Part shown: piece after piece, positions 1,905-54,218 of the stretch
Position numbering within the stretch: the stretch's first letter is position 1
Layout: every line of letters starts with the position of its first letter
Assembly (NCBI GenBank): GCA_026397315.1
Contig: JAPLVC010000006.1
Location: 1-64,000 of the forward strand
Direction: 5' to 3'
Origin: Candidatus Aenigmatarchaeota archaeon
GTDB taxonomy: Archaea > Aenigmatarchaeota > Aenigmatarchaeia > QMZP01 > QMZT01
DNA: 64,000 nucleotides
Translations under genes and position numbers: made by a program
Notes under the pieces: model-generated
The model's input: only the letters and a program-made list of their open reading frames with translations
Databases searched by the model: none
Told to the model about the DNA's origin: nothing

Positions 1905-2039
1905 AAAATAGATTTGGTCGGCGTCGGAATAAATACGCAAAGAAAACGGCTGAATTAACAGGACAATCACGCAGTGTATTTATTTTACCGTTCCATATTG
2001 AAAGTATAACGCACGAAGGCATATGGCAATGTGAAGTGC

Positions 2040-2447
2040 ATGAAAATCGGAAATTTTTCCAAAGGCAGCACGCGACTTTTCCTAAATTATGTTATTTTAG
2101 CGGGCATCGCTACCGCCGTCGACCTATGCCTGCTCTATGCGATATCCGAGTTCGCCGGCGTGTGGTATTTCTATGCAGCCGCTGTATCATACGTCGCTGG
2201 CATGCTGACCAATTACATGCTAAACAAATATCTGAACTTCAGGAACAGCAGCAGGAAGATTGCACACCAGTTCACGGTTTTCGCAGCAGTTTCGCTCACC
2301 GGCCTGGCGTTTAACCAGATTATACTCTACTGTCTGGTGGAATTCGCAGGTATATGGTATATGTATTCTAAAATCACGGCCGTGTTCATAGTTTTGTTCT
2401 GGAATTTTTACGGTCACAGGAAGTTTACTTTTAACATTTTCAAATAG
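2040..2447 (+). CDS. GtrA family protein
   Basis: Small 4-TM protein with 'ATAVD..L', 'NYMLNKYLNF' and 'WNFYGHRKFTF'. Confidence 0.85.
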   Translation: MKIGNFSKGSTRLFLNYVILAGIATAVDLCLLYAISEFAGVWYFYAAAVSYVAGMLTNYMLNKYLNFRNSSRKIAHQFTVFAAVSLTGLAFNQIILYCLVEFAGIWYMYSKITAVFIVLFWNFYGHRKFTFNIFK

Positions 2448-36962: not shown

Positions 36963-38681
36963 TCATGCTCTAGTTTCTATCTCTTTCCTTATATTGGTGA
37001 TGAAATCCTCCAGCTTAATGCCAAATTTGACTTTCTTCTCACCGCGGGTTCTCAGTGCAATGGTCTTGGCCTGCTCTTCTTTGTCGCCAATCACTATTAT
37101 GTAGGGGATTCTCTGGATCTCCGCTTCCCTTACCTTGTATTCGAGGGTGTTTGATTTCAAATCGCATTCCACCCTTATCTTCGCCTCTTCAAGGCTTTTC
37201 GCAATTTCACTGGCTGCCTTGTTGTTTCTGTCTGTGAAGGACAAGACGCGCACCTGGACCGGCGAGAGCCAGACGGGAAGGTTGCCGTCAAGATGCTCGA
37301 GAAGTATGCCTATGAACCTCTCAATCGCGCCGTAAATGACCCTGTGCAGCATGACCGGTCTGTGGTCTTCGTTGTCTTCCCCCTTGTACGTGAGGTCGAA
37401 CCTTTCTGGCATGGCGAAATCAAGCTGTATGGTCGCGCACTGCCAGGTCCTGCCTTGACTGTCCTTGATGTGGTAATCTATTTTCGGGCCGTAGAATGCG
37501 CCATCGCCCTTGTTGATTTTGTATGCCATTTTTTTGTGCTTGAGGGTTTCCTCGAGTTTCGCTTCTGCCTTGTCCCATATCCTGTCGTCACCTATCCTCT
37601 TCTCTGGACGGGTTGAAAGTTCGACATGATAAGTGAGTCCGAACTTCTTGTAAAACATGTCGACTAGGTCCATTATGCGTCCTATCTCACCCTCAAGCTG
37701 ATCTTCGGTGCAGAAGATGTGCGCGTCGTCTTGAGTGAAGCAAATTACCCTGAAAAGCCCCGTGAGCACGCCGGACAGTTCCTGGCGGTGGACGATGCCA
37801 AGCTCGCCGACGCGAAGGGGGAGATCTTTGTAGGACTTGGGCCTGTTCTTGTAAACCATCATCCCTCCAGGGCAGTTCATGGGCTTGACGGCAAAGCTCC
37901 TGCCCTCGTAGTCGGTTATGAAATTGTTCTGGTATTTCTCCCAATGGCCTGAAATCTGCCACAGCTTCTTGTCCATGATTTGCGGAGTCGAAATCTCCTG
38001 GTATCCCGCCCTCCTGTGCTGCTCCCTCCAGAAGCTGATTAGTTCGTTATATATGGTGAGACCCTTATCATGCCAGAACACCATGCCCGGCGCAACCTCG
38101 CTGAAGCTGAAGAGGTCCATCCTCTGACCGAGTATGCGGTGGTCGTTGTCTTTCAGATTATCCTTGTCCAGCCTCGTTTTCGAAATGTCCCTTAGAAGCT
38201 GCTTGTAGTCGAAGCCCCCTTCTTTTGTTTCCTTGGTTTTTGCTTTGGCCCTCTCGACCCCCTCGGGCAGGATGTCCCTGCTGAGCTCCGAAAGAGGATG
38301 TCCCTTGCACTTTATGTCGAAGGCCTTGTACCAGCCGAAGGGGGCGCGCTTCACCGGGACTTTCGCTTCGATTAGCGCTTTTTCCACGCCTTTGAGTACG
38401 TAGAGAGCGGAATCGGGGGAAGACAGATCACTGGATAGGTGGGCGTACGGATAAACGACTACGTTTTTGGCGTTTACCTGGTTTCTGACGGATATGATCT
38501 CCTTGGCGGTTTTTTTGACCACATCATCGAGGTTTGCCTGGTCCGACTTCTCGACCGCGCTGAACACTACAAGCGCGTCTTCGACCCTTACGGGTTTCTT
38601 CTCGATTTCCTCTGCGCTTGGAATAGCCTTCTTCTTAGGCTCCCACTCTATGAAATCCGAATGCAGCAATAATATCTTCAT
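36963..38681 (-). CDS. thrS: Threonyl-tRNA synthetase
   Basis: Archaeal editing domain (YPYAHLS, APFGWYK, CKGHPLSELS) plus KPMNCPG, FTQDDAH, AFYGPKID, HRVIYGAIERF; SD AGGTGAT upstream. Confidence 0.97.
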   Translation of the reverse strand: MKILLLHSDFIEWEPKKKAIPSAEEIEKKPVRVEDALVVFSAVEKSDQANLDDVVKKTAKEIISVRNQVNAKNVVVYPYAHLSSDLSSPDSALYVLKGVEKALIEAKVPVKRAPFGWYKAFDIKCKGHPLSELSRDILPEGVERAKAKTKETKEGGFDYKQLLRDISKTRLDKDNLKDNDHRILGQRMDLFSFSEVAPGMVFWHDKGLTIYNELISFWREQHRRAGYQEISTPQIMDKKLWQISGHWEKYQNNFITDYEGRSFAVKPMNCPGGMMVYKNRPKSYKDLPLRVGELGIVHRQELSGVLTGLFRVICFTQDDAHIFCTEDQLEGEIGRIMDLVDMFYKKFGLTYHVELSTRPEKRIGDDRIWDKAEAKLEETLKHKKMAYKINKGDGAFYGPKIDYHIKDSQGRTWQCATIQLDFAMPERFDLTYKGEDNEDHRPVMLHRVIYGAIERFIGILLEHLDGNLPVWLSPVQVRVLSFTDRNNKAASEIAKSLEEAKIRVECDLKSNTLEYKVREAEIQRIPYIIVIGDKEEQAKTIALRTRGEKKVKFGIKLEDFITNIRKEIETRA

Positions 38682-38720
38682 CCGCCATCACCTTTACCTT
38701 TATTTTTTACCATCATGGTT

Positions 38721-38825
38721 AATTAAACTCCCGGCTGGCCGGAGACGAATCAAAATCAGCCCGGCCGCAGACCAAGGACTAACACGTCGTTGTCGTTGTG
38801 ATGGTTGTAGTCGTGGTCTTGCCGG
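38721..38825 (-). promoter_or_regulatory. Candidate attenuator RNA: alternative hairpins 1:2, 2:3 (antiterminator) and 3:4 (terminator-like, then UUUAAUU)
   Basis: Segment 1 (38808-38825) pairs with segment 2 (38761-38781); GGCCGG (38761-38766) pairs with CCGGCC (38737-38742); CUCCGG-CCAG-CCGGGAG hairpin at 38728-38744. Confidence 0.7.
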
Positions 38826-38832
38826 AATACAT
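38779..38832 (-). CDS. Thr-rich leader peptide of thrS (MYSGKTTTTTITTTTTC)
   Basis: ATG TAT TCC GGC AAG ACC ACG ACT ACA ACC ATC ACA ACG ACA ACG ACG TGT TAG; 10 of 17 codons are Thr; ends 97 nt before the thrS ATG. Confidence 0.85.
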   Translation of the reverse strand: MYSGKTTTTTITTTTTC

Positions 38833-38852
38833 GAGATGTATTTGTGGCGGAA

Positions 38853-38868
38853 AGTTTAAAAGTTTTTC
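38853..38868 (-). promoter_or_regulatory. BRE/TATA-like promoter for the leader-thrS transcript
   Basis: Minus strand GAAAAAC-TTTTAAAC, about 29 nt upstream of the leader ATG, consistent with a leaderless transcript. Confidence 0.55.
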
Positions 38869-47574: not shown

Positions 47575-48957
47575 ATGGACTTCGGTTTCGAGAGTTTCGA
47601 TACCGGTTTTGCGGGCTTTGACGTAGATGTGGAAGACTTCCATATCAGCAAAAAGAAGAAATATGACAGGATATGGAAGGTCGGCGTTGGCGGCAGCGTG
47701 TGCTCCAAGCCGGTCATTGATGGCAATATAGCTTACTTCGGTTCGCTTGACCAAAACGTTTACGCCGTTGATTTGAGAACGGGAAAAGAGGTGTGGAGAT
47801 TAAAGACTAACGGTCTTATCCTCGACTCTTCGCCGTCGCTGCATGACGGAGTATTGTTCATCGGAACTTTCGGTCACGACGTTCATGCCATAAACGCTTC
47901 TGACGGGACTGAGTTGTGGAAATTCCGTACCGGGGCTGAGATAAACTCCAGGCCACTTGTTTTCAACGACATGGTATTTTTCACGTCAAAGAACGGCTAC
48001 ATGTATGCTGTGAGCGAGTCTTCTGGTAAGGAAATCTGGAGATTCAAGACTGGTGCGGAGATGGTTTCAGCTCCGACCCAATATGATGGCAAGATAATTA
48101 TCGGCTCATATGACGGATACCTTTACTGCGTCAGCCTTGATGGCAAGGAAATCTGGAGATTCAAGACCGGCGCTGAGATAGAGAACGACGACCATTTTCT
48201 TATACATGACGGCGTGGTTTATTTCGGCAGCTTCGATAACTACTTGTACGCGGTCGATGTCAGGACCGGGAAGGAGGTATGGCGCTTCAGGACCGGCAAA
48301 TACGGCAACTGCGGGGTGCCGAGGATGCACGGGAATGTCATTTATTACGGCTCAAGGGACGGCATATTTTATGCCATTTCAATGGATGGCAAGGAGCTTT
48401 GGAGATTCAACACGGGAAAAGAGATAATAGACAAGGGTCCCTTGGTCTACAAAAACAAAATCTATTTCGGCGCCGGCGACAACAACGTTTATTGCCTTAG
48501 TCTCGACGGAATGGAACTCTGGAGATTCAAGACGAACGGAGGCGTTTACACGTCAGTCGTTGAACACGGAGGGACGCTTTATTTCGGCAGCTGGGACTGC
48601 CATCTTTATGCAGTTGATGTAATCACGGGCAAAGAAGTGTGGTGCTTTGCGACTAGCTCGCTTACGCCAGCGCCGTTGCCACCTGCATACGAATGCTTTG
48701 AAGTGGAAATCAAAAAAGGCATGCACGTAGATGATGCGATATCCGAAGACAAATATGCCAGCAAAAAACACGATCACGTTTCCCTTTCAAACTACCAGAT
48801 AACGAGCGAGTATTCGACTAAGAGCGAATACAAGCAGAAAAGCGATTACGATGTAAACCTTATCATGTTTGAGGAAACTTTAGAGTGTGAGAAAATATGG
48901 ACTTCGGATTCGAGGGCTTTGAATCTGCCGGTTTCGACGTCGATGTCGAAGAAGTGA
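47575..48957 (+). CDS. PQQ-like 8-bladed beta-propeller repeat protein, copy 1
   Basis: Repeated 'YFGS.D..LYA....G.E.W.F.T'; no signal peptide. Confidence 0.85.
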   Translation: MDFGFESFDTGFAGFDVDVEDFHISKKKKYDRIWKVGVGGSVCSKPVIDGNIAYFGSLDQNVYAVDLRTGKEVWRLKTNGLILDSSPSLHDGVLFIGTFGHDVHAINASDGTELWKFRTGAEINSRPLVFNDMVFFTSKNGYMYAVSESSGKEIWRFKTGAEMVSAPTQYDGKIIIGSYDGYLYCVSLDGKEIWRFKTGAEIENDDHFLIHDGVVYFGSFDNYLYAVDVRTGKEVWRFRTGKYGNCGVPRMHGNVIYYGSRDGIFYAISMDGKELWRFNTGKEIIDKGPLVYKNKIYFGAGDNNVYCLSLDGMELWRFKTNGGVYTSVVEHGGTLYFGSWDCHLYAVDVITGKEVWCFATSSLTPAPLPPAYECFEVEIKKGMHVDDAISEDKYASKKHDHVSLSNYQITSEYSTKSEYKQKSDYDVNLIMFEETLECEKIWTSDSRALNLPVSTSMSKK

Positions 48958-50261
48958 CGATGAAGAAGACTAAGAAGTTCGACCGTGTCTTCCGCGTAAG
49001 CTTCGGCGGCAGCATAAACCAGAGGCCGCTTGTTTTTGGAGACCTTATCATATTCGGATCAATGGATCATTTTCTCTATGCGATTGACTCCAAAACAGGC
49101 ATGGAAGCATGGAGAACCAAGGCAAATGGCATATTTTTTGAGTCATCCCCGATAACTGACGGGAAAACCATATTCATAGGCAATTACGATTACAATCTTT
49201 ACGCTGTCGACGCGAGGAACGGTAAAGTTTTGTGGAGATTCAAAACAGGCGGTGAGATACTTGGCACGCCCGCGTTGGACGAAAAAAACGTTTACATAGG
49301 TTCCAGGGACGGAAACCTTTACTGTGTTGACAAAATGACCGGCAGTGAAAAATGGCGTTTCAGAACAGGAGACTGGGTCGTAGCGACGCCGCTTGTCAAC
49401 GAAGGGAAGGTGTACATAGGCTCTTTCGACTGCAATTTTTATTGCCTAAACTCAGGAGATGGCAAGGAAGTTTGGCGCTTCAAGACAGGTGCGGAGATAT
49501 ACGACGTTTATCCTGGCAGCATCATCAACGGAAGGATTTTCGTGCCGTCTTTCGATAATAACCTGTATTGTCTCGATTCACGCACAGGCAAGGAAATCTG
49601 GAGGTTCGCGGGCTGCAAATACGGAACCGCTGCCGCCCCGATTTTTTACAAAAACATTCTTTATCACGAGACAAGAGACGGCATACTTTACGCCCTTTCA
49701 ATGGACGGCAAAGAAATATGGAGATTCAAGGCAGGAGGTCTCATAGGCATGCCGGTATTCAGGGGTAGCAGAATGTATGTAGGTTCAGCAGACAAGAACC
49801 TTTACTGTCTTGACATGAACGGCAAGGAGGTCTGGAGGTTCAGGACTGATGGCGACGTCTTCTGGCAGCCGGTGATAAAAGATGGCGTGATATACTTTAC
49901 GTCGTGGGACTGCCATCTTTACGCTGTGAATGTCGAAACCAGAGAAGAATTATGGAGATTCGCCACCAGCACAAAGACGCAGGCAGAATGGCCGCCTGCA
50001 TTCGAGGGATGGGAAGCGGAGATAAAGAAGGCGACGCACATAGAGGACGCAATAAGCGAGGACCGCTACAAATCAAAACACGAGAAAAGCGTGTCGCTTT
50101 CCGATTATCACGTCAAGAGCGATTATGCCACGACCAGCGAATATAAACAGAAAAGCGATTATGATACTCAATGGGTCATGTTTGAAAATGTAATGGAGGA
50201 CGAGGAAATATGGACTTTGGATTTGAAAGTATTGACTCCGGATTTTCGGACTTCGATGTAG
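48897..50261 (+). CDS. PQQ-like beta-propeller repeat protein, copy 2
   Basis: Same architecture; overlaps copy 1 by 61 nt. Confidence 0.85.
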   Translation: MDFGFEGFESAGFDVDVEEVTMKKTKKFDRVFRVSFGGSINQRPLVFGDLIIFGSMDHFLYAIDSKTGMEAWRTKANGIFFESSPITDGKTIFIGNYDYNLYAVDARNGKVLWRFKTGGEILGTPALDEKNVYIGSRDGNLYCVDKMTGSEKWRFRTGDWVVATPLVNEGKVYIGSFDCNFYCLNSGDGKEVWRFKTGAEIYDVYPGSIINGRIFVPSFDNNLYCLDSRTGKEIWRFAGCKYGTAAAPIFYKNILYHETRDGILYALSMDGKEIWRFKAGGLIGMPVFRGSRMYVGSADKNLYCLDMNGKEVWRFRTDGDVFWQPVIKDGVIYFTSWDCHLYAVNVETREELWRFATSTKTQAEWPPAFEGWEAEIKKATHIEDAISEDRYKSKHEKSVSLSDYHVKSDYATTSEYKQKSDYDTQWVMFENVMEDEEIWTLDLKVLTPDFRTSM

Positions 50262-51586
50262 ACGTCGAGGAAGTCGTGATGAAGAAGACGAAGAGCTACG
50301 ACAGAGTCTGGAAGACCGGCGACGGAGGCAGCGTACAGGGTAATCCGATAATTCATAATGGCATGATATATTTCGGTTCTCATGACGGCTATGTTTATGG
50401 TGTAAATGATAAAGGCAAAATAACATGGAGATTCCAGACTAACGGAGCTATTCTAGGTTCACCTGTCATTTACAAAAATTCCATATTAATCGGCTCATTC
50501 GATGGCAGCATGTACAGGATAGACGTGGAAGAAGCGAAAGCTGTGTGGATTTTCAAGACTTCTGACAAGATATTCAGCGCTCCGTTCGTTTACAATGATA
50601 TTGTGTACTTCGGCTCAAAGGACGGCAACGTGTATGCTGTGGACTGCGAAAATGGAAAAGAACTCTGGCGCTTCAGGACAGGCGGCGATGTAGCATGTTC
50701 TCCTGTAACTGAAAAAGGAAAGGTTTACGTAACTTCATATGATCACAACATGTATTGCCTGAATGCAAAGACCGGAAAAGAAATATGGCGTTTCAGAACC
50801 GGAGATGAGATGTTAAACAACATACCTTTTGTCATAAACAATGGTGTGATATATTTCGGAAGCTTCGACTGCTATATTTACGCAGTCAACTGTGATACTG
50901 GAAAGGAATTGTGGCGTTTCAGGACAGGCAAATACGGCATAGGAGGCAGCACACCAAATGTATATAAAAACAAAATTTATTTCGGTTCCAGGGACGGCGA
51001 TTTCTACGCACTTGCCATGAACGGCAAAGAGCTCTGGAGATTCAGGGCGGGCGGTCCGATAATAGGTCAGCTGGCTCAGTTTTATGAAGACATGATAATT
51101 TTCGGCTGCGAAGACGGTAACATGTACTTTCTGGACATGGACGGCAACGAGATAGGCCGCTTCAAAACAGGAGGAAGGCTTTACGGAAGATTTCTTTTGC
51201 ATGAAGGCAGAATCTACTTCGGCAGCTGGGATTGCTATTTTTATGCCGTTGATGTGACGAGCAAAAAGGAGCTTTGGCGCTGCCCGACCAGTAGCATGGC
51301 TCCCTCAACCATACCGCCTGTGCATGACGTATTCAGTGCGGAAATCAAAAAAGGGACGCACATCGAAGACACGATAACAGAGGACAGATACAAATCCAAG
51401 AAGAAGGAAGAAGCGGTTTCTTTGTCCAGTTATCAGATAAGGTCGGAATATGCCAGCACATCTGAATACAAACAGAAGTCCGACTATAACGTTAATCTAG
51501 TCGTATTTGAAAGTGTGTTAGAAGGTGAGGATATATGGACTTCGGATTTGAAGGTTTCGACAACTCCGATTTTGAAACAGAATTAG
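50210..51586 (+). CDS. PQQ-like beta-propeller repeat protein, copy 3
   Basis: Same architecture; overlaps copy 2 by 52 nt. Confidence 0.85.
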   Translation: MDFGFESIDSGFSDFDVDVEEVVMKKTKSYDRVWKTGDGGSVQGNPIIHNGMIYFGSHDGYVYGVNDKGKITWRFQTNGAILGSPVIYKNSILIGSFDGSMYRIDVEEAKAVWIFKTSDKIFSAPFVYNDIVYFGSKDGNVYAVDCENGKELWRFRTGGDVACSPVTEKGKVYVTSYDHNMYCLNAKTGKEIWRFRTGDEMLNNIPFVINNGVIYFGSFDCYIYAVNCDTGKELWRFRTGKYGIGGSTPNVYKNKIYFGSRDGDFYALAMNGKELWRFRAGGPIIGQLAQFYEDMIIFGCEDGNMYFLDMDGNEIGRFKTGGRLYGRFLLHEGRIYFGSWDCYFYAVDVTSKKELWRCPTSSMAPSTIPPVHDVFSAEIKKGTHIEDTITEDRYKSKKKEEAVSLSSYQIRSEYASTSEYKQKSDYNVNLVVFESVLEGEDIWTSDLKVSTTPILKQN

Positions 51587-52893
51587 AAGAGTTTGAAGTC
51601 AAGAAAGTCAGGAAATTCGACAGGATGTGGAAAATAGGCGAAGGAGGCAGCATCGCTTTTTCCACAATTTACGATGACAGAATTTTATTCAGTTGTGCGG
51701 ACAAACATGTTTACTGTGCCGACATTAAGACGGGCAGAGAAATTTGGAGATTCAGGACCGGAAAAATAGTGATGTCGAAACCCGTCGTAAAGAATGATGT
51801 GGTCTATTTCGGTTCATATGACGGTAAGTTTTATGCAGTTGATGTGAATTCCGGAAAGGAACTTTGGAAATTCAATGCCGGCAGCGAGACATTCATCGGT
51901 TCTTGTGTTAGCGACGATACTGTTTTTTTCGGTTGCCGGAATGGATATCTTTATGCTCTGAGTTTTAATGGAAAAGAAAAATGGCGTTTCAGAACTGGAG
52001 AAGAAATTGTATCGGTCCCTATTGTACATGAAACCAGAATCTTCATCGGCTCTTTCGACAGCAATTTTTATTGTATCGACACGAAAAACGGTAAAGAGAT
52101 TTGGCGCTTCAGGACGGGTGATTGCATTCACGTTGACTGGCCTCCGCTGATAAATGAAAACAAGATACATTTCGCTTCTTTCGATAATTACCTTTATTCC
52201 GTGGACATAGATACAGGTAAGGAAGTCTGGCGTTTCAGGACCGGTAGATATGGCAATTCATCAAGTCCAGTGCTGTATAATAATGTGATTTACTATGGCT
52301 CGAGAGATGGCATACTTTTTGCCCTCACACTTGACGGAAAGGAAATATGGAGATTTAAGGCAGGTGGTATGATAGAAGGCAAGCCTTGTGCCCATGATGA
52401 TAGAATTTACTTTGGTGCCGAAGATGGTAACATGTATTGCTTGGATATGAACGGAAAGGAGATCTGGAGGTTCAGAACTTCAGCGGCAATTTATGATTCG
52501 CCAAAAATTCATGATGGTATTTTGTATTTCGGTTCTTGGGATTGTCACCTGTATGCAATAAAGCTTAACGGTGAAGAATTGTGGAGATTCAACACCAGTT
52601 CAAACGTGATAGCACCGGCACCGCCGGCATACGATTCTTTCAAGATGGAAATCATGAAATCAGGTTTAGCGGAAGACGTAAAAACAACGGGCAGATACAA
52701 AAAATCCAAGGAAGAAATAATCTCACTGTCTGATTATAACGTTAAAAGCGACTACGCGACGACGAACGAATACAAGCAAAAATCGGATTACGACACCCAG
52801 TGGGTAATGTTTGAAGGTATTCTGAATGAGGAGGAACTGACATGTCTTTCGAATTTGGCGGATTCGAGTCCGCGGACTTTGATGTTGAATTAG
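51535..52893 (+). CDS. PQQ-like beta-propeller repeat protein, copy 4
   Basis: Same architecture; overlaps copy 3 by 52 nt; SD GGTGAGG upstream. Confidence 0.85.
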   Translation: MDFGFEGFDNSDFETELEEFEVKKVRKFDRMWKIGEGGSIAFSTIYDDRILFSCADKHVYCADIKTGREIWRFRTGKIVMSKPVVKNDVVYFGSYDGKFYAVDVNSGKELWKFNAGSETFIGSCVSDDTVFFGCRNGYLYALSFNGKEKWRFRTGEEIVSVPIVHETRIFIGSFDSNFYCIDTKNGKEIWRFRTGDCIHVDWPPLINENKIHFASFDNYLYSVDIDTGKEVWRFRTGRYGNSSSPVLYNNVIYYGSRDGILFALTLDGKEIWRFKAGGMIEGKPCAHDDRIYFGAEDGNMYCLDMNGKEIWRFRTSAAIYDSPKIHDGILYFGSWDCHLYAIKLNGEELWRFNTSSNVIAPAPPAYDSFKMEIMKSGLAEDVKTTGRYKKSKEEIISLSDYNVKSDYATTNEYKQKSDYDTQWVMFEGILNEEELTCLSNLADSSPRTLMLN

Positions 52894-54218
52894 AGGATTT
52901 GGTTATAAAGAGGACGAAAAAATTCGACAGGATGTGGGAAGTCGGTTTCGGCGGCAGCATAAACAACGGAGTAAGGCTTGTTGATGGCGTAATATATTTC
53001 GGAGCCATGGACGGTTACGTTTATGCCGTCGATGCATCTACCGGAAAGGAAAAATGGAAATTCAAAACGAACGATGGCATTTGCGAAAGCACGCCAGCCG
53101 TCGCTGACGGAGTTCTTTACGTCGGTTCTTTTGATCACAACCTTTATGCTATTGATGCTAAAACAGGAAAATTCAAATGGTCGTTTAGGACTGGCGGGAT
53201 GATTGACGTTTCGCCTGAAGTTTCTGATGGCATTGCTTACGTCGGTTCGAGGGACGGGAATGTATACGCACTTGACTGTAAAACCGGAAAGGAAGTATGG
53301 CGCTTCAGGACTGGTGACGAAATAGCTTCGGCTCCGACAGTTTATGACAACATGATATTTAACGGCTCTTTTGATAAGAATTTTTACTGTCTCGACAAGA
53401 AGACGGGAAAGGAAATCTGGCGCTTCAGAACCGGCGGGGAAATACACAACGACAGGCCTTTCCTCGTGGTTAATGGAAGCATATATTTCACGTCATTCGA
53501 CAGCTATCTTTACTGCATTGACATAAAAACAGGAAAGGAAATATGGAGGTTCAGGACCGGCAGATATGGCAATGCCGGAAGCCCCGCTTTCCACAACGGC
53601 GTCATTTACCATGCATCTAGGGATGGCATTCTCTACGCCATTTCACTCGAAGGGAAAGAGCTGTGGAGGTTCAGAACTGAAAGGGAGGAATCGACGGATG
53701 CAATACCCCTGATATACAAGAACAGGATATATTTCGGGGCGGGAGATTCCAATCTCTACTGCCTGGATTTGAATGGCAAGGAGTTATGGAGATTCAGGGC
53801 TTCATACTGCATATACACTTCGGCAGCGGTCTTAAACAACGTGATATTCTTCAACTCGATGGATTGCCACTTATATGCGCTGGATGCGGACACCGGAGAG
53901 GAAGTGTGGAGATTCGCTACGTCGACGATGACAATATCACCTCTGCCGCCACCTTATGCATCCTTCAAACTCGAGGTCAGCAAGTCACAGGTATCTGAGC
54001 ATTTTGATATCAAAGAAAAATATAAGAAAGGCAAAGAAGAAACAGTATCGCTGTCTGATTATCACATCAAGAGCGATTACGCGACTACCAGCGAGTACAA
54101 GCAGAAAAGCGACTATGACACTCACTGGGTAATGTTTGATGAGGTCTTTGTCGATGAACCGGAAATTTTCTGCGGGATGCTTGGCGAAAGCGAAATACTG
54201 AAGACGCAGAAAGCCTGA
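52842..54218 (+). CDS. PQQ-like beta-propeller repeat protein, copy 5
   Basis: Same architecture; overlaps copy 4 by 52 nt; SD GAGGAGG upstream. Confidence 0.85.
   Translation: MSFEFGGFESADFDVELEDLVIKRTKKFDRMWEVGFGGSINNGVRLVDGVIYFGAMDGYVYAVDASTGKEKWKFKTNDGICESTPAVADGVLYVGSFDHNLYAIDAKTGKFKWSFRTGGMIDVSPEVSDGIAYVGSRDGNVYALDCKTGKEVWRFRTGDEIASAPTVYDNMIFNGSFDKNFYCLDKKTGKEIWRFRTGGEIHNDRPFLVVNGSIYFTSFDSYLYCIDIKTGKEIWRFRTGRYGNAGSPAFHNGVIYHASRDGILYAISLEGKELWRFRTEREESTDAIPLIYKNRIYFGAGDSNLYCLDLNGKELWRFRASYCIYTSAAVLNNVIFFNSMDCHLYALDADTGEEVWRFATSTMTISPLPPPYASFKLEVSKSQVSEHFDIKEKYKKGKEETVSLSDYHIKSDYATTSEYKQKSDYDTHWVMFDEVFVDEPEIFCGMLGESEILKTQKA

Follow-up and report, generated by a model that had tools for sequence, protein, structure and literature searches.

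In Escherichia coli, pheM-pheST carries a leader-peptide attenuator of an aminoacyl-tRNA synthetase gene, and thrL controls the threonine biosynthesis genes rather than a synthetase. Structured leaders that act without a leader ORF control thrS, the threonyl-tRNA synthetase gene, in response to tRNA-Thr or ThrRS: in Bacillus subtilis this is a T-box, in E. coli an operator that mimics the tRNA. In mycobacteria, leaderless poly-Cys short ORFs work through a stalled ribosome that keeps an RNA duplex from forming (Canestrari et al., bioRxiv 10.1101/834739). For archaea, no case of attenuation or antitermination was known according to PMC8448881. A sequence-only reading of the DNA studied here had remarked that, to its knowledge, leader-peptide attenuation is not an established archaeal mechanism. 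Our literature searches found no later published archaeal leader-peptide attenuation.

The locus that we compare with these systems lies in a 64,000-nucleotide stretch of DNA, analysed as a whole and called the window below, from the 1.05-Mb, seven-contig assembly of a Candidatus Aenigmatarchaeota (DPANN) archaeon. As in pheM-pheST, a short ORF rich in the cognate codon stands before a synthetase gene, amid alternative helices 1:2, 2:3 and 3:4. Unlike pheM-pheST, it belongs to an archaeal host, its ORF is predicted to be leaderless, the termination step is one that we infer, and stem 3:4 is followed not by a U-run but by an A/U box that is a predicted promoter. The resemblance to thrL lies in a Thr-run peptide with interspersed Ile (TTTTTITTTTT), proposed here to be a ribosome-read measure of Thr-tRNA charging; in contrast to thrL, the gene downstream encodes a synthetase, no sequence relationship is apparent and the Ile codon is not conserved in relatives. 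The mycobacterial ORFs likewise are short and carry a run of one codon, and are leaderless, which here is a prediction, but their unmasking of a ribosome-binding site has no counterpart at this locus, where the Shine-Dalgarno sequence of thrS is distant and unpaired. With the T-box leader and the E. coli thrS operator the locus shares a structured leader RNA ahead of thrS, but it matches no Rfam family and its ORF has features that point to translation. Overall, the cognate-codon ORF upstream and the helices 1:2, 2:3 and 3:4, whose segment 1 extends across the regulatory codons, are those of a classical attenuator; helix 3:4 is not the stable GC hairpin with U-run of an intrinsic terminator. 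Since it lacks such a terminator on the one hand and a masked ribosome-binding site on the other, the element is a member of neither the classical attenuators nor the mycobacterial type.

The ORF, MYSGKTTTTTITTTTTC, runs from 38832 to 38779 on the minus strand, as do all features of the locus described below, with its ATG at 38832 and its TAG at 38781-38779. Ten of its 17 codons encode Thr (ACC twice, ACG four times, ACT once, ACA three times), compared with a genome-wide Thr share of 5.3% of codons, and the gap between its stop and the thrS ATG at 38681 is 97 nt. The Thr-rich 17-codon ORF using all four Thr codons, 97 nt ahead of thrS, had already been described in the sequence-only reading and was recovered when we re-read the sequence. 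No other short ORF of the genome is so dominated by a single amino acid, which fills 9 of the 10 positions of its best-scoring span, and among about 4,800 intergenic short ORFs its score of 7/8 was equalled by a single acidic small ORF. The same set of about 4,800 yielded no other convincing cognate-codon leader ahead of a gene in this genome. The downstream gene, thrS (36963-38681), encodes a threonyl-tRNA synthetase of 572 aa with the archaeal ThrRS editing domain, the class II core and the anticodon-binding domain (Pfam PF08915, PF00587 and PF03129). Reading the sequence places its Shine-Dalgarno motif, AGGTGAT, at 38687-38693, where GGTG or GGGG motifs are kept in relatives. Upstream, an HDAC-like gene (39953-38856) ends in a TAA (38858-38856) that lies inside a TTTTAAA box, and the ATG of the leader ORF follows 22 bases past this box.

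This box probably belongs to a promoter of the ORF itself, which we call P1. Across the genome, start codons without a Shine-Dalgarno sequence show a sharp peak of TATA-like motifs at -26, and a profile built from 136 such leaderless-type genes consists of an A-rich BRE, TTTTAAAA at -30 to -23 and CAA at -12 to -10. Predicted P1 (38855-38868) reproduces this arrangement: the A-rich BRE-like GAAAAAC precedes the TATA element TTTTAAA (38861-38855), overlapping the stop of the HDAC-like gene; the TATA centre lies 26 nt before the leader ATG, which is the leaderless geometry of the genome; and a proximal CAA at -12 to -10 (38842-38844) matches the genome-wide CAA peak and is conserved as CAATTAAC in relatives. 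When a promoter PWM trained on the other genes of this genome was scanned across a 230-nt region, the best start was the A of the leader ATG (38832), with a score of 12.0 in the top 0.06% of background. The best start also fell on this A in 16 of 21 loci, including those in which P1 lies inside a propeller gene. The BRE/TATA-like element proposed earlier on therefore gains support as the ORF's own predicted promoter from both the PWM and conservation. Given that the best PWM start falls on the A of its ATG, the ORF would be leaderless, and it is probably translated from a leaderless transcript.

The second-best PWM site in this region has its predicted start at about 38697 and is driven by TTTAATTAA (38727-38719) together with the proximal element TAAAAAATAAAG (element and start spanning 38697-38709; PWM 7.3, top 0.6% of background), which is conserved in relatives. 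The transcript predicted from this promoter, P2, would have a 16-nt leader carrying AGGTGAT. Its candidate TATA element is the A/U box UUUAAUUAA at 38719-38727, which is also the sole candidate for a weak-hybrid tract after stem 3:4. P2 is kept in the sequence-divergent leaders that we call type II, as TATATTA followed downstream by CAAAAAT, and its box is retained in relatives that lost the ORF. That the element after stem 3:4 could be a second promoter had been raised only as a caveat; the PWM match and the retention of the box in relatives without the ORF make it the likelier reading, and the A/U box very probably serves thrS as the TATA element of an additional promoter. With this predicted, conserved promoter placed after the proposed attenuator and ahead of thrS, the gene could do without P1.

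Three further observations concern the same interval. A second mini-ORF, MMVKNKGKGDGG (38678-38716), has a TGA that overlaps the thrS ATG (ATGA); it was found in the window and in one relative (L002) and is missing in L029 and others, and, as it is situated ahead of the start predicted for P2, only RNAs reading through from P1 would carry it. Pairing of CCAUCAC in the leader ORF with GUGAUGG at the thrS ribosome-binding site, considered as an anti-Shine-Dalgarno device, is not kept in L002 or other relatives and was rejected. Finally, a bacterial-type scan returned no sigma-70-like site and, in the leader, three terminator-like matches against 1.4 expected, which is uninformative for an archaeon.

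The sequence-only reading had proposed a scan for cognate-codon ORFs upstream of thrS and other such genes in DPANN and other archaea. We sought thrS in 40 related genomes and fetched more loci by protein and by DNA pattern; pattern scans with CCAGCCGNGAGTTTAWTTAA in metagenomes and genomes gave 8 and 14 loci, few of them new. This search returned about 16 distinct leaders. Of the 22 genomes that belong to the window's own family of Aenigmatarchaeota, 14-15 have a Thr-run ORF ahead of thrS, ending 83-117 nt before the gene, with peptides such as MNSGKTTTKTTTTTTTTC, MNSGFTTTTTTSR, MNSGRTTTTTTFC, MNSVTTATTGSKTTTTGTTTSL and MFTSTTTTGTTGSC. One genome of another family of the order (locus L023) has a Thr-run ORF, MYPGAMTTTTTGSC, that ends 271 nt before thrS, and the sampled thrS loci of other archaeal lineages showed none. 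At L023, a further ORF of about 65 codons (MKNKTDMNNVVLHTDW..., 1940-2136, minus strand) lies between leader and thrS, and its start resembles a ThrRS N-terminus.

The pattern of change among these leaders is that of a translated frame. All 21 leaders keep the ATG, an intact frame of 13-22 codons and the TAG stop, and the frame survives indels of 3n nucleotides. Across ten distinct six-Thr blocks, the first and second positions of the Thr codons are invariant and the third position varies in six of six columns; Thr codon usage resembles that of the genome. Taken together, the invariant first and second positions, the free third positions and the kept ATG, frame and TAG are the signature of selection on a Thr-coding frame, one that is probably translated, and not on a nucleotide repeat. 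That the run is no simple microsatellite, as had been argued from its mixed codons, is borne out by the restriction of variation to the third positions of the Thr codons. The neighbour upstream of the leader varies (HDAC-like gene, propeller gene, divergent TatD gene or an ORF of unknown function), and the gene downstream is thrS in every case.

Some loci depart from this pattern. In L021 the Thr run has decayed to two Thr (MNSGFMIKTTMSR) and P1 has likewise decayed. In some relatives the ORF was removed by two different, independent deletions, both of which end just before CCAGCCGTGAGTTTAATTAA and retain the RNA segment D described below. One MAG contains two thrS loci (L056 and L095; WVZE01000032.1 and WVZE01000042.1), both with the leader MNSGFTTTTTTSR, one after the HDAC-like gene and the other after the propeller gene; the bin either mixes two strains or carries a genuine duplication. 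In the four-contig assembly G004 (L012:1451-1513), a frameshift breaks thrS after codon 20 (MKILLLHSDFIEWEPKEKAL*). Recombination at this codon was considered and rejected, as the apparent break is a single frameshift that probably stems from a homopolymer sequencing error, with the gene itself intact.

In the RNA that would be made from P1, a set of short segments accounts for the alternative pairings. Segment A, UUCCGGC (38821-38827), covers codons 2-4 and forms the 5' part of segment 1; it pairs either with segment B in stem 1:2 or with segment D in the closing helix of the minimum-energy fold. The 5' arm of helix H1, AGACCA-C-GACUA (38808-38819), contains the first Thr codons, and its 3' arm, UAGUC-CU-UGGUCU (38769-38781), begins with the stop codon; both arms are supported by folding and by compensatory changes in relatives. 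Segment B, GGCCGGG (38760-38766), pairs with A (1:2) or C (2:3). It is followed by the U-rich linker or loop CUGAUUUUGAUUCGU (38745-38759), a candidate pause or termination tract that is U/C-rich in all type I leaders without conserved sequence. Segment C, CUCCGGCC (38737-38744), pairs with B (2:3) or with D (3:4), and segment D, GCCGGGAG (38728-38735), pairs with C (3:4) or A and occupies the position of the P2 BRE. In nearly all leaders, the first Thr codon lies one codon past segment A.

As the sequence-only reading had proposed, stems 1:2, 2:3 and 3:4 can all form in the leader RNA of the window. Folding in the order of synthesis yields 1:2 (A and the 5' arm of H1 with the 3' arm of H1 and B) together with 3:4 (C with D), and the global minimum-energy fold has 2:3. 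The further claim that the stems are mutually exclusive holds in part: 1:2 and 2:3 compete through GGCCGG, but the stem formed by AGACCA/GACUA and UAGUC/UGGUCU coexists with 2:3 in the minimum-energy fold. The window leader (114-121 nt) is more stable than its dinucleotide shuffles (z between -2.5 and -2.6; 3 of 200 shuffles equalled it), and relatives reach -3 to -6, for a span of -2.5 to -6.0 across leaders. The 14 type I leaders share one minimum-energy fold, a three-way junction of A:D, H1 and B:C that is closed by pairing of codons 2-4 with the segment just before the A/U box. The scheme of 1:2, 2:3 and 3:4 recurs in leaders of three kinds that diverge in sequence, namely type I, type II and L023; in the latter two the helices include GAACUCC:GGGGUUC, CUGGG:CCCAG and CCCAGC-GGAA-GCUGGG, and 3:4 again abuts an all-A/U box.

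Covariation was found for part of this structure. H1 shows compensatory changes (GGUCU:AGACC, GGUUC:GAACC, GGUCC:GGACC), and in type II five pairs have changed on both sides. MAFFT misplaces the register of the Thr codons and thereby puts H1 pairs into gap columns. The CCGG-type helices show no covariation within type I, their columns being nearly invariant. Stem 3:4, with 6 bp in the window, has 3 bp in 5 of the 14 type I relatives (L016, L021, L056, L095 and L135). The tract after it reads UUUAAUUAA, or AAAUAUAUUA in type II, and is never a U-run; the U-tract of the sequence-only reading is thus better described, in the window and in relatives alike, as an A/U-rich box. Our attempt to calibrate terminators from gene ends found downstream regions dominated by the TATA box of the next gene, with runs of five or more T at 61 of 204 convergent ends.

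Folding with a masked ribosome footprint, a check that had been suggested at the outset, yielded no clean switch by thermodynamics alone. Masking the first Thr codons removes the pairings of A, but 2:3 wins in every ribosome state, and in the equilibrium folds with A masked D often finds another partner. Since 2:3 wins thermodynamically in every state, a switch would have to rest on kinetic, co-transcriptional folding.

We infer transcription, translation, stalling and termination of the leader from these features and picture their sequence as follows. The P1 transcript would begin at the A of the leader AUG, leaving the ORF leaderless, and a ribosome would load onto it while the RNA is still being synthesised. 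When Thr-tRNA is plentiful, or when there is no translation, the first Thr codons would be cleared, and segment 1 (codons 2-9) could pair with segment 2, which consists of the stop-codon region and GGCCGG; this would leave CUCCGGCC free for GCCGGGAG. With D held in a helix before UUUAAUUAA, whether with C or, as in the minimum-energy fold, with A, RNA polymerase would stop or be released. When Thr-tRNA is scarce, the ribosome would wait on the first Thr codons, which start 4-6 nt after segment A, and would mask segment 1; GGCCGG would then pair with CCGGCC, D would be single-stranded and polymerase would read into thrS. The weaker P2, with the same A/U box as its TATA element, would supply basal thrS mRNA with a leader of about 16 nt and the Shine-Dalgarno sequence.

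How firmly these steps can be held differs. A ribosome-read sensor of Thr-tRNA for thrS is likely, judging from the conserved sequence features. As to its output, regulated stopping of P1 transcription at the A/U box, with P2 basal, seems the most likely of the options. To the conjunction of the two, a cis-acting, ribosome-read sensor of charged tRNA-Thr that sets thrS expression through a regulated P1 stop, we would assign slightly less than an even chance. The original reading as ribosome-mediated attenuation accordingly stands in its sensing part, given the selected cognate-codon frame, the predicted promoter and the kept pairing scheme, and is weakened in its terminating part, where stem 3:4 is weak in five relatives and no U-run follows. 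Relatives without the ORF, which still have P2, evidently get by with no leader, and this too counts against an attenuator. In its favour, the genome encodes a homologue of FttA/aCPSF1 (624 aa, G000:C6; L147:1225-3099, minus strand) with KH_TffA, metallo-beta-lactamase, beta-CASP and RMMBL domains, and a second beta-CASP protein of 438 aa. As a general caution, no requirement for hairpins in termination is known for archaeal RNA polymerase (review PMC13675443). ARAGORN, with introns allowed, reported 29 tRNA genes only, including a single tRNA-Thr candidate with anticodon AGU and an 81-nt intron; the low count probably reflects under-detection of split or intron-rich tRNAs in an assembly that is 91% complete.

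The same Thr sensor, read by a ribosome, could instead act through an output other than termination, an alternative that we consider unlikely though deserving of serious attention. The state of the leader might alter interference of P1 with P2, for example through polymerase paused or blocked at a TATA box bound by TBP/TFB, or it might change the cleavage or stability of the long-leader mRNA. The architecture at the end of the leader lends itself to such readings: the P2 BRE and TATA element fall on segment D and the A/U box, the box of type II leaders resembles a TATA box and not a terminator, and among the pairings of D in type I the closing helix A:D shows the highest conservation. In L012, moreover, a 23-nt insertion separates D-UUUA from the box TTAATTAA, and both are retained. 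We know of no precedent for such an output, and one variant of it, masking of the ribosome-binding site, is unlikely because the thrS Shine-Dalgarno sequence lies 45-60 nt past the last helix, in an A-rich stretch, and is unpaired in the fold.

A more radical alternative dispenses with the ribosome. The leader might bind ThrRS as a mimic of tRNA-Thr, or might bind tRNA-Thr directly in the manner of a T-box, in which case the ACN run would act as specifier and UGGU would base-pair with the 3' end of the tRNA. The strong conserved structure and the conserved UGGUC after the stop codon would suit an RNA of this kind, and both mechanisms regulate thrS in bacteria. Between 38000 and 39500, however, Rfam searches returned chance-level matches only, with no family, the T-box included, recognised at E values up to 10. 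Anticodon-like NGU triplets occur in the B-C loop of some leaders only, in a context that is not conserved, unlike the E. coli ThrRS operator, whose hairpin loops carry NGU in an anticodon-loop setting. An element made of RNA alone would also have no need for an ATG at the start site, for a frame maintained through 3n indels, for a fixed TAG or for free third positions in 6-12 Thr codons. We therefore hold a ribosome-independent element to be improbable and retain the translated sensor.

The history of the locus raises the question of whether the ORF is a functionless remnant. In at least eight relatives (about half), the Thr run forms, in frame, the C-terminal end of a PQQ-like beta-propeller gene of 460 aa situated between the HDAC-like gene and thrS, and the DNA of the window is homologous to the 3' end of that gene from about TTC..GAAA..TTTAAAC onward. 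A leftover propeller-gene 3' end after a deletion could explain this homology, and the loss of the Thr run altogether in some relatives would be in keeping with it. Against such decay, the stand-alone form occurs in at least nine distinct genomes and in three other contexts (downstream of the HDAC-like gene, in an intergenic region shared with the divergent TatD gene and after the ORF of unknown function), with ATG, TAG, Thr codons, promoter and helices intact and with synonymous sites turned over. Nor is the Thr tail a property of propeller genes, as it was found in none of the 11 propeller paralogues elsewhere in the window's genome, so that a remnant without function is, in our view, improbable. 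These paralogues, which encode PQQ-like beta-propeller proteins of 430-470 aa, comprise five in tandem at 47578-54143 (plus strand) and others at six further places; they share the motif ..SEYKQKSDYD..VMFE, which is followed by variable tails of 20-30 aa. With the paralogue tails variable and none of them Thr-rich, the Thr run goes with thrS and not with the propeller family. A functional Thr-rich micropeptide acting in trans, for which one might cite the conserved N-terminus MNSG, the short C-terminal end and the fact that some bacterial leader peptides act in trans (PMC7298713), is very improbable, given that its length of 13-22 residues and the number and spacing of its Thr vary, that the MNSG codons coincide with RNA segment A and that the element always adjoins thrS.

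The leader seems to be older than one feature of the synthetase that it precedes. The ThrRS of the window combines the archaeal editing domain with a core that matches bacterial ThrRS (Saccharibacteria, Chloroflexi-type) at 40-44% identity and the cores of most family members, which are of a type of about 635 aa, at 27-31%. Because both ThrRS types are preceded by the same Thr leader, the leader appears to predate the swap of the core.

If the reading of a ribosome-read sensor with a regulated P1 stop holds, the locus would be a true archaeal leader-peptide attenuator in a DPANN lineage. In it, a pioneer ribosome on a leaderless Thr-run ORF would gate a stop made of a helix and an A/U box, the stop would double as the TATA box and BRE of P2, and the sensor would sometimes be the C-terminal tail of a protein gene; we find this picture credible while stopping just short of expecting it to be right. 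Two design features would place it outside the bacterial textbook cases: a predicted leaderless sensor with a promoter overlapping the proposed stop site, and the option for a long gene to carry this sensor as its tail. The leader before thrS may thus serve as a mutable test case for whether coupled transcription and translation are used for regulation in archaea and for how an RNA polymerase II-like enzyme responds to the structure of nascent RNA. It may also show how host-dependent archaea with very small genomes, in which uptake of amino acids is expected instead of synthesis, adjust their synthetase levels to the supply.
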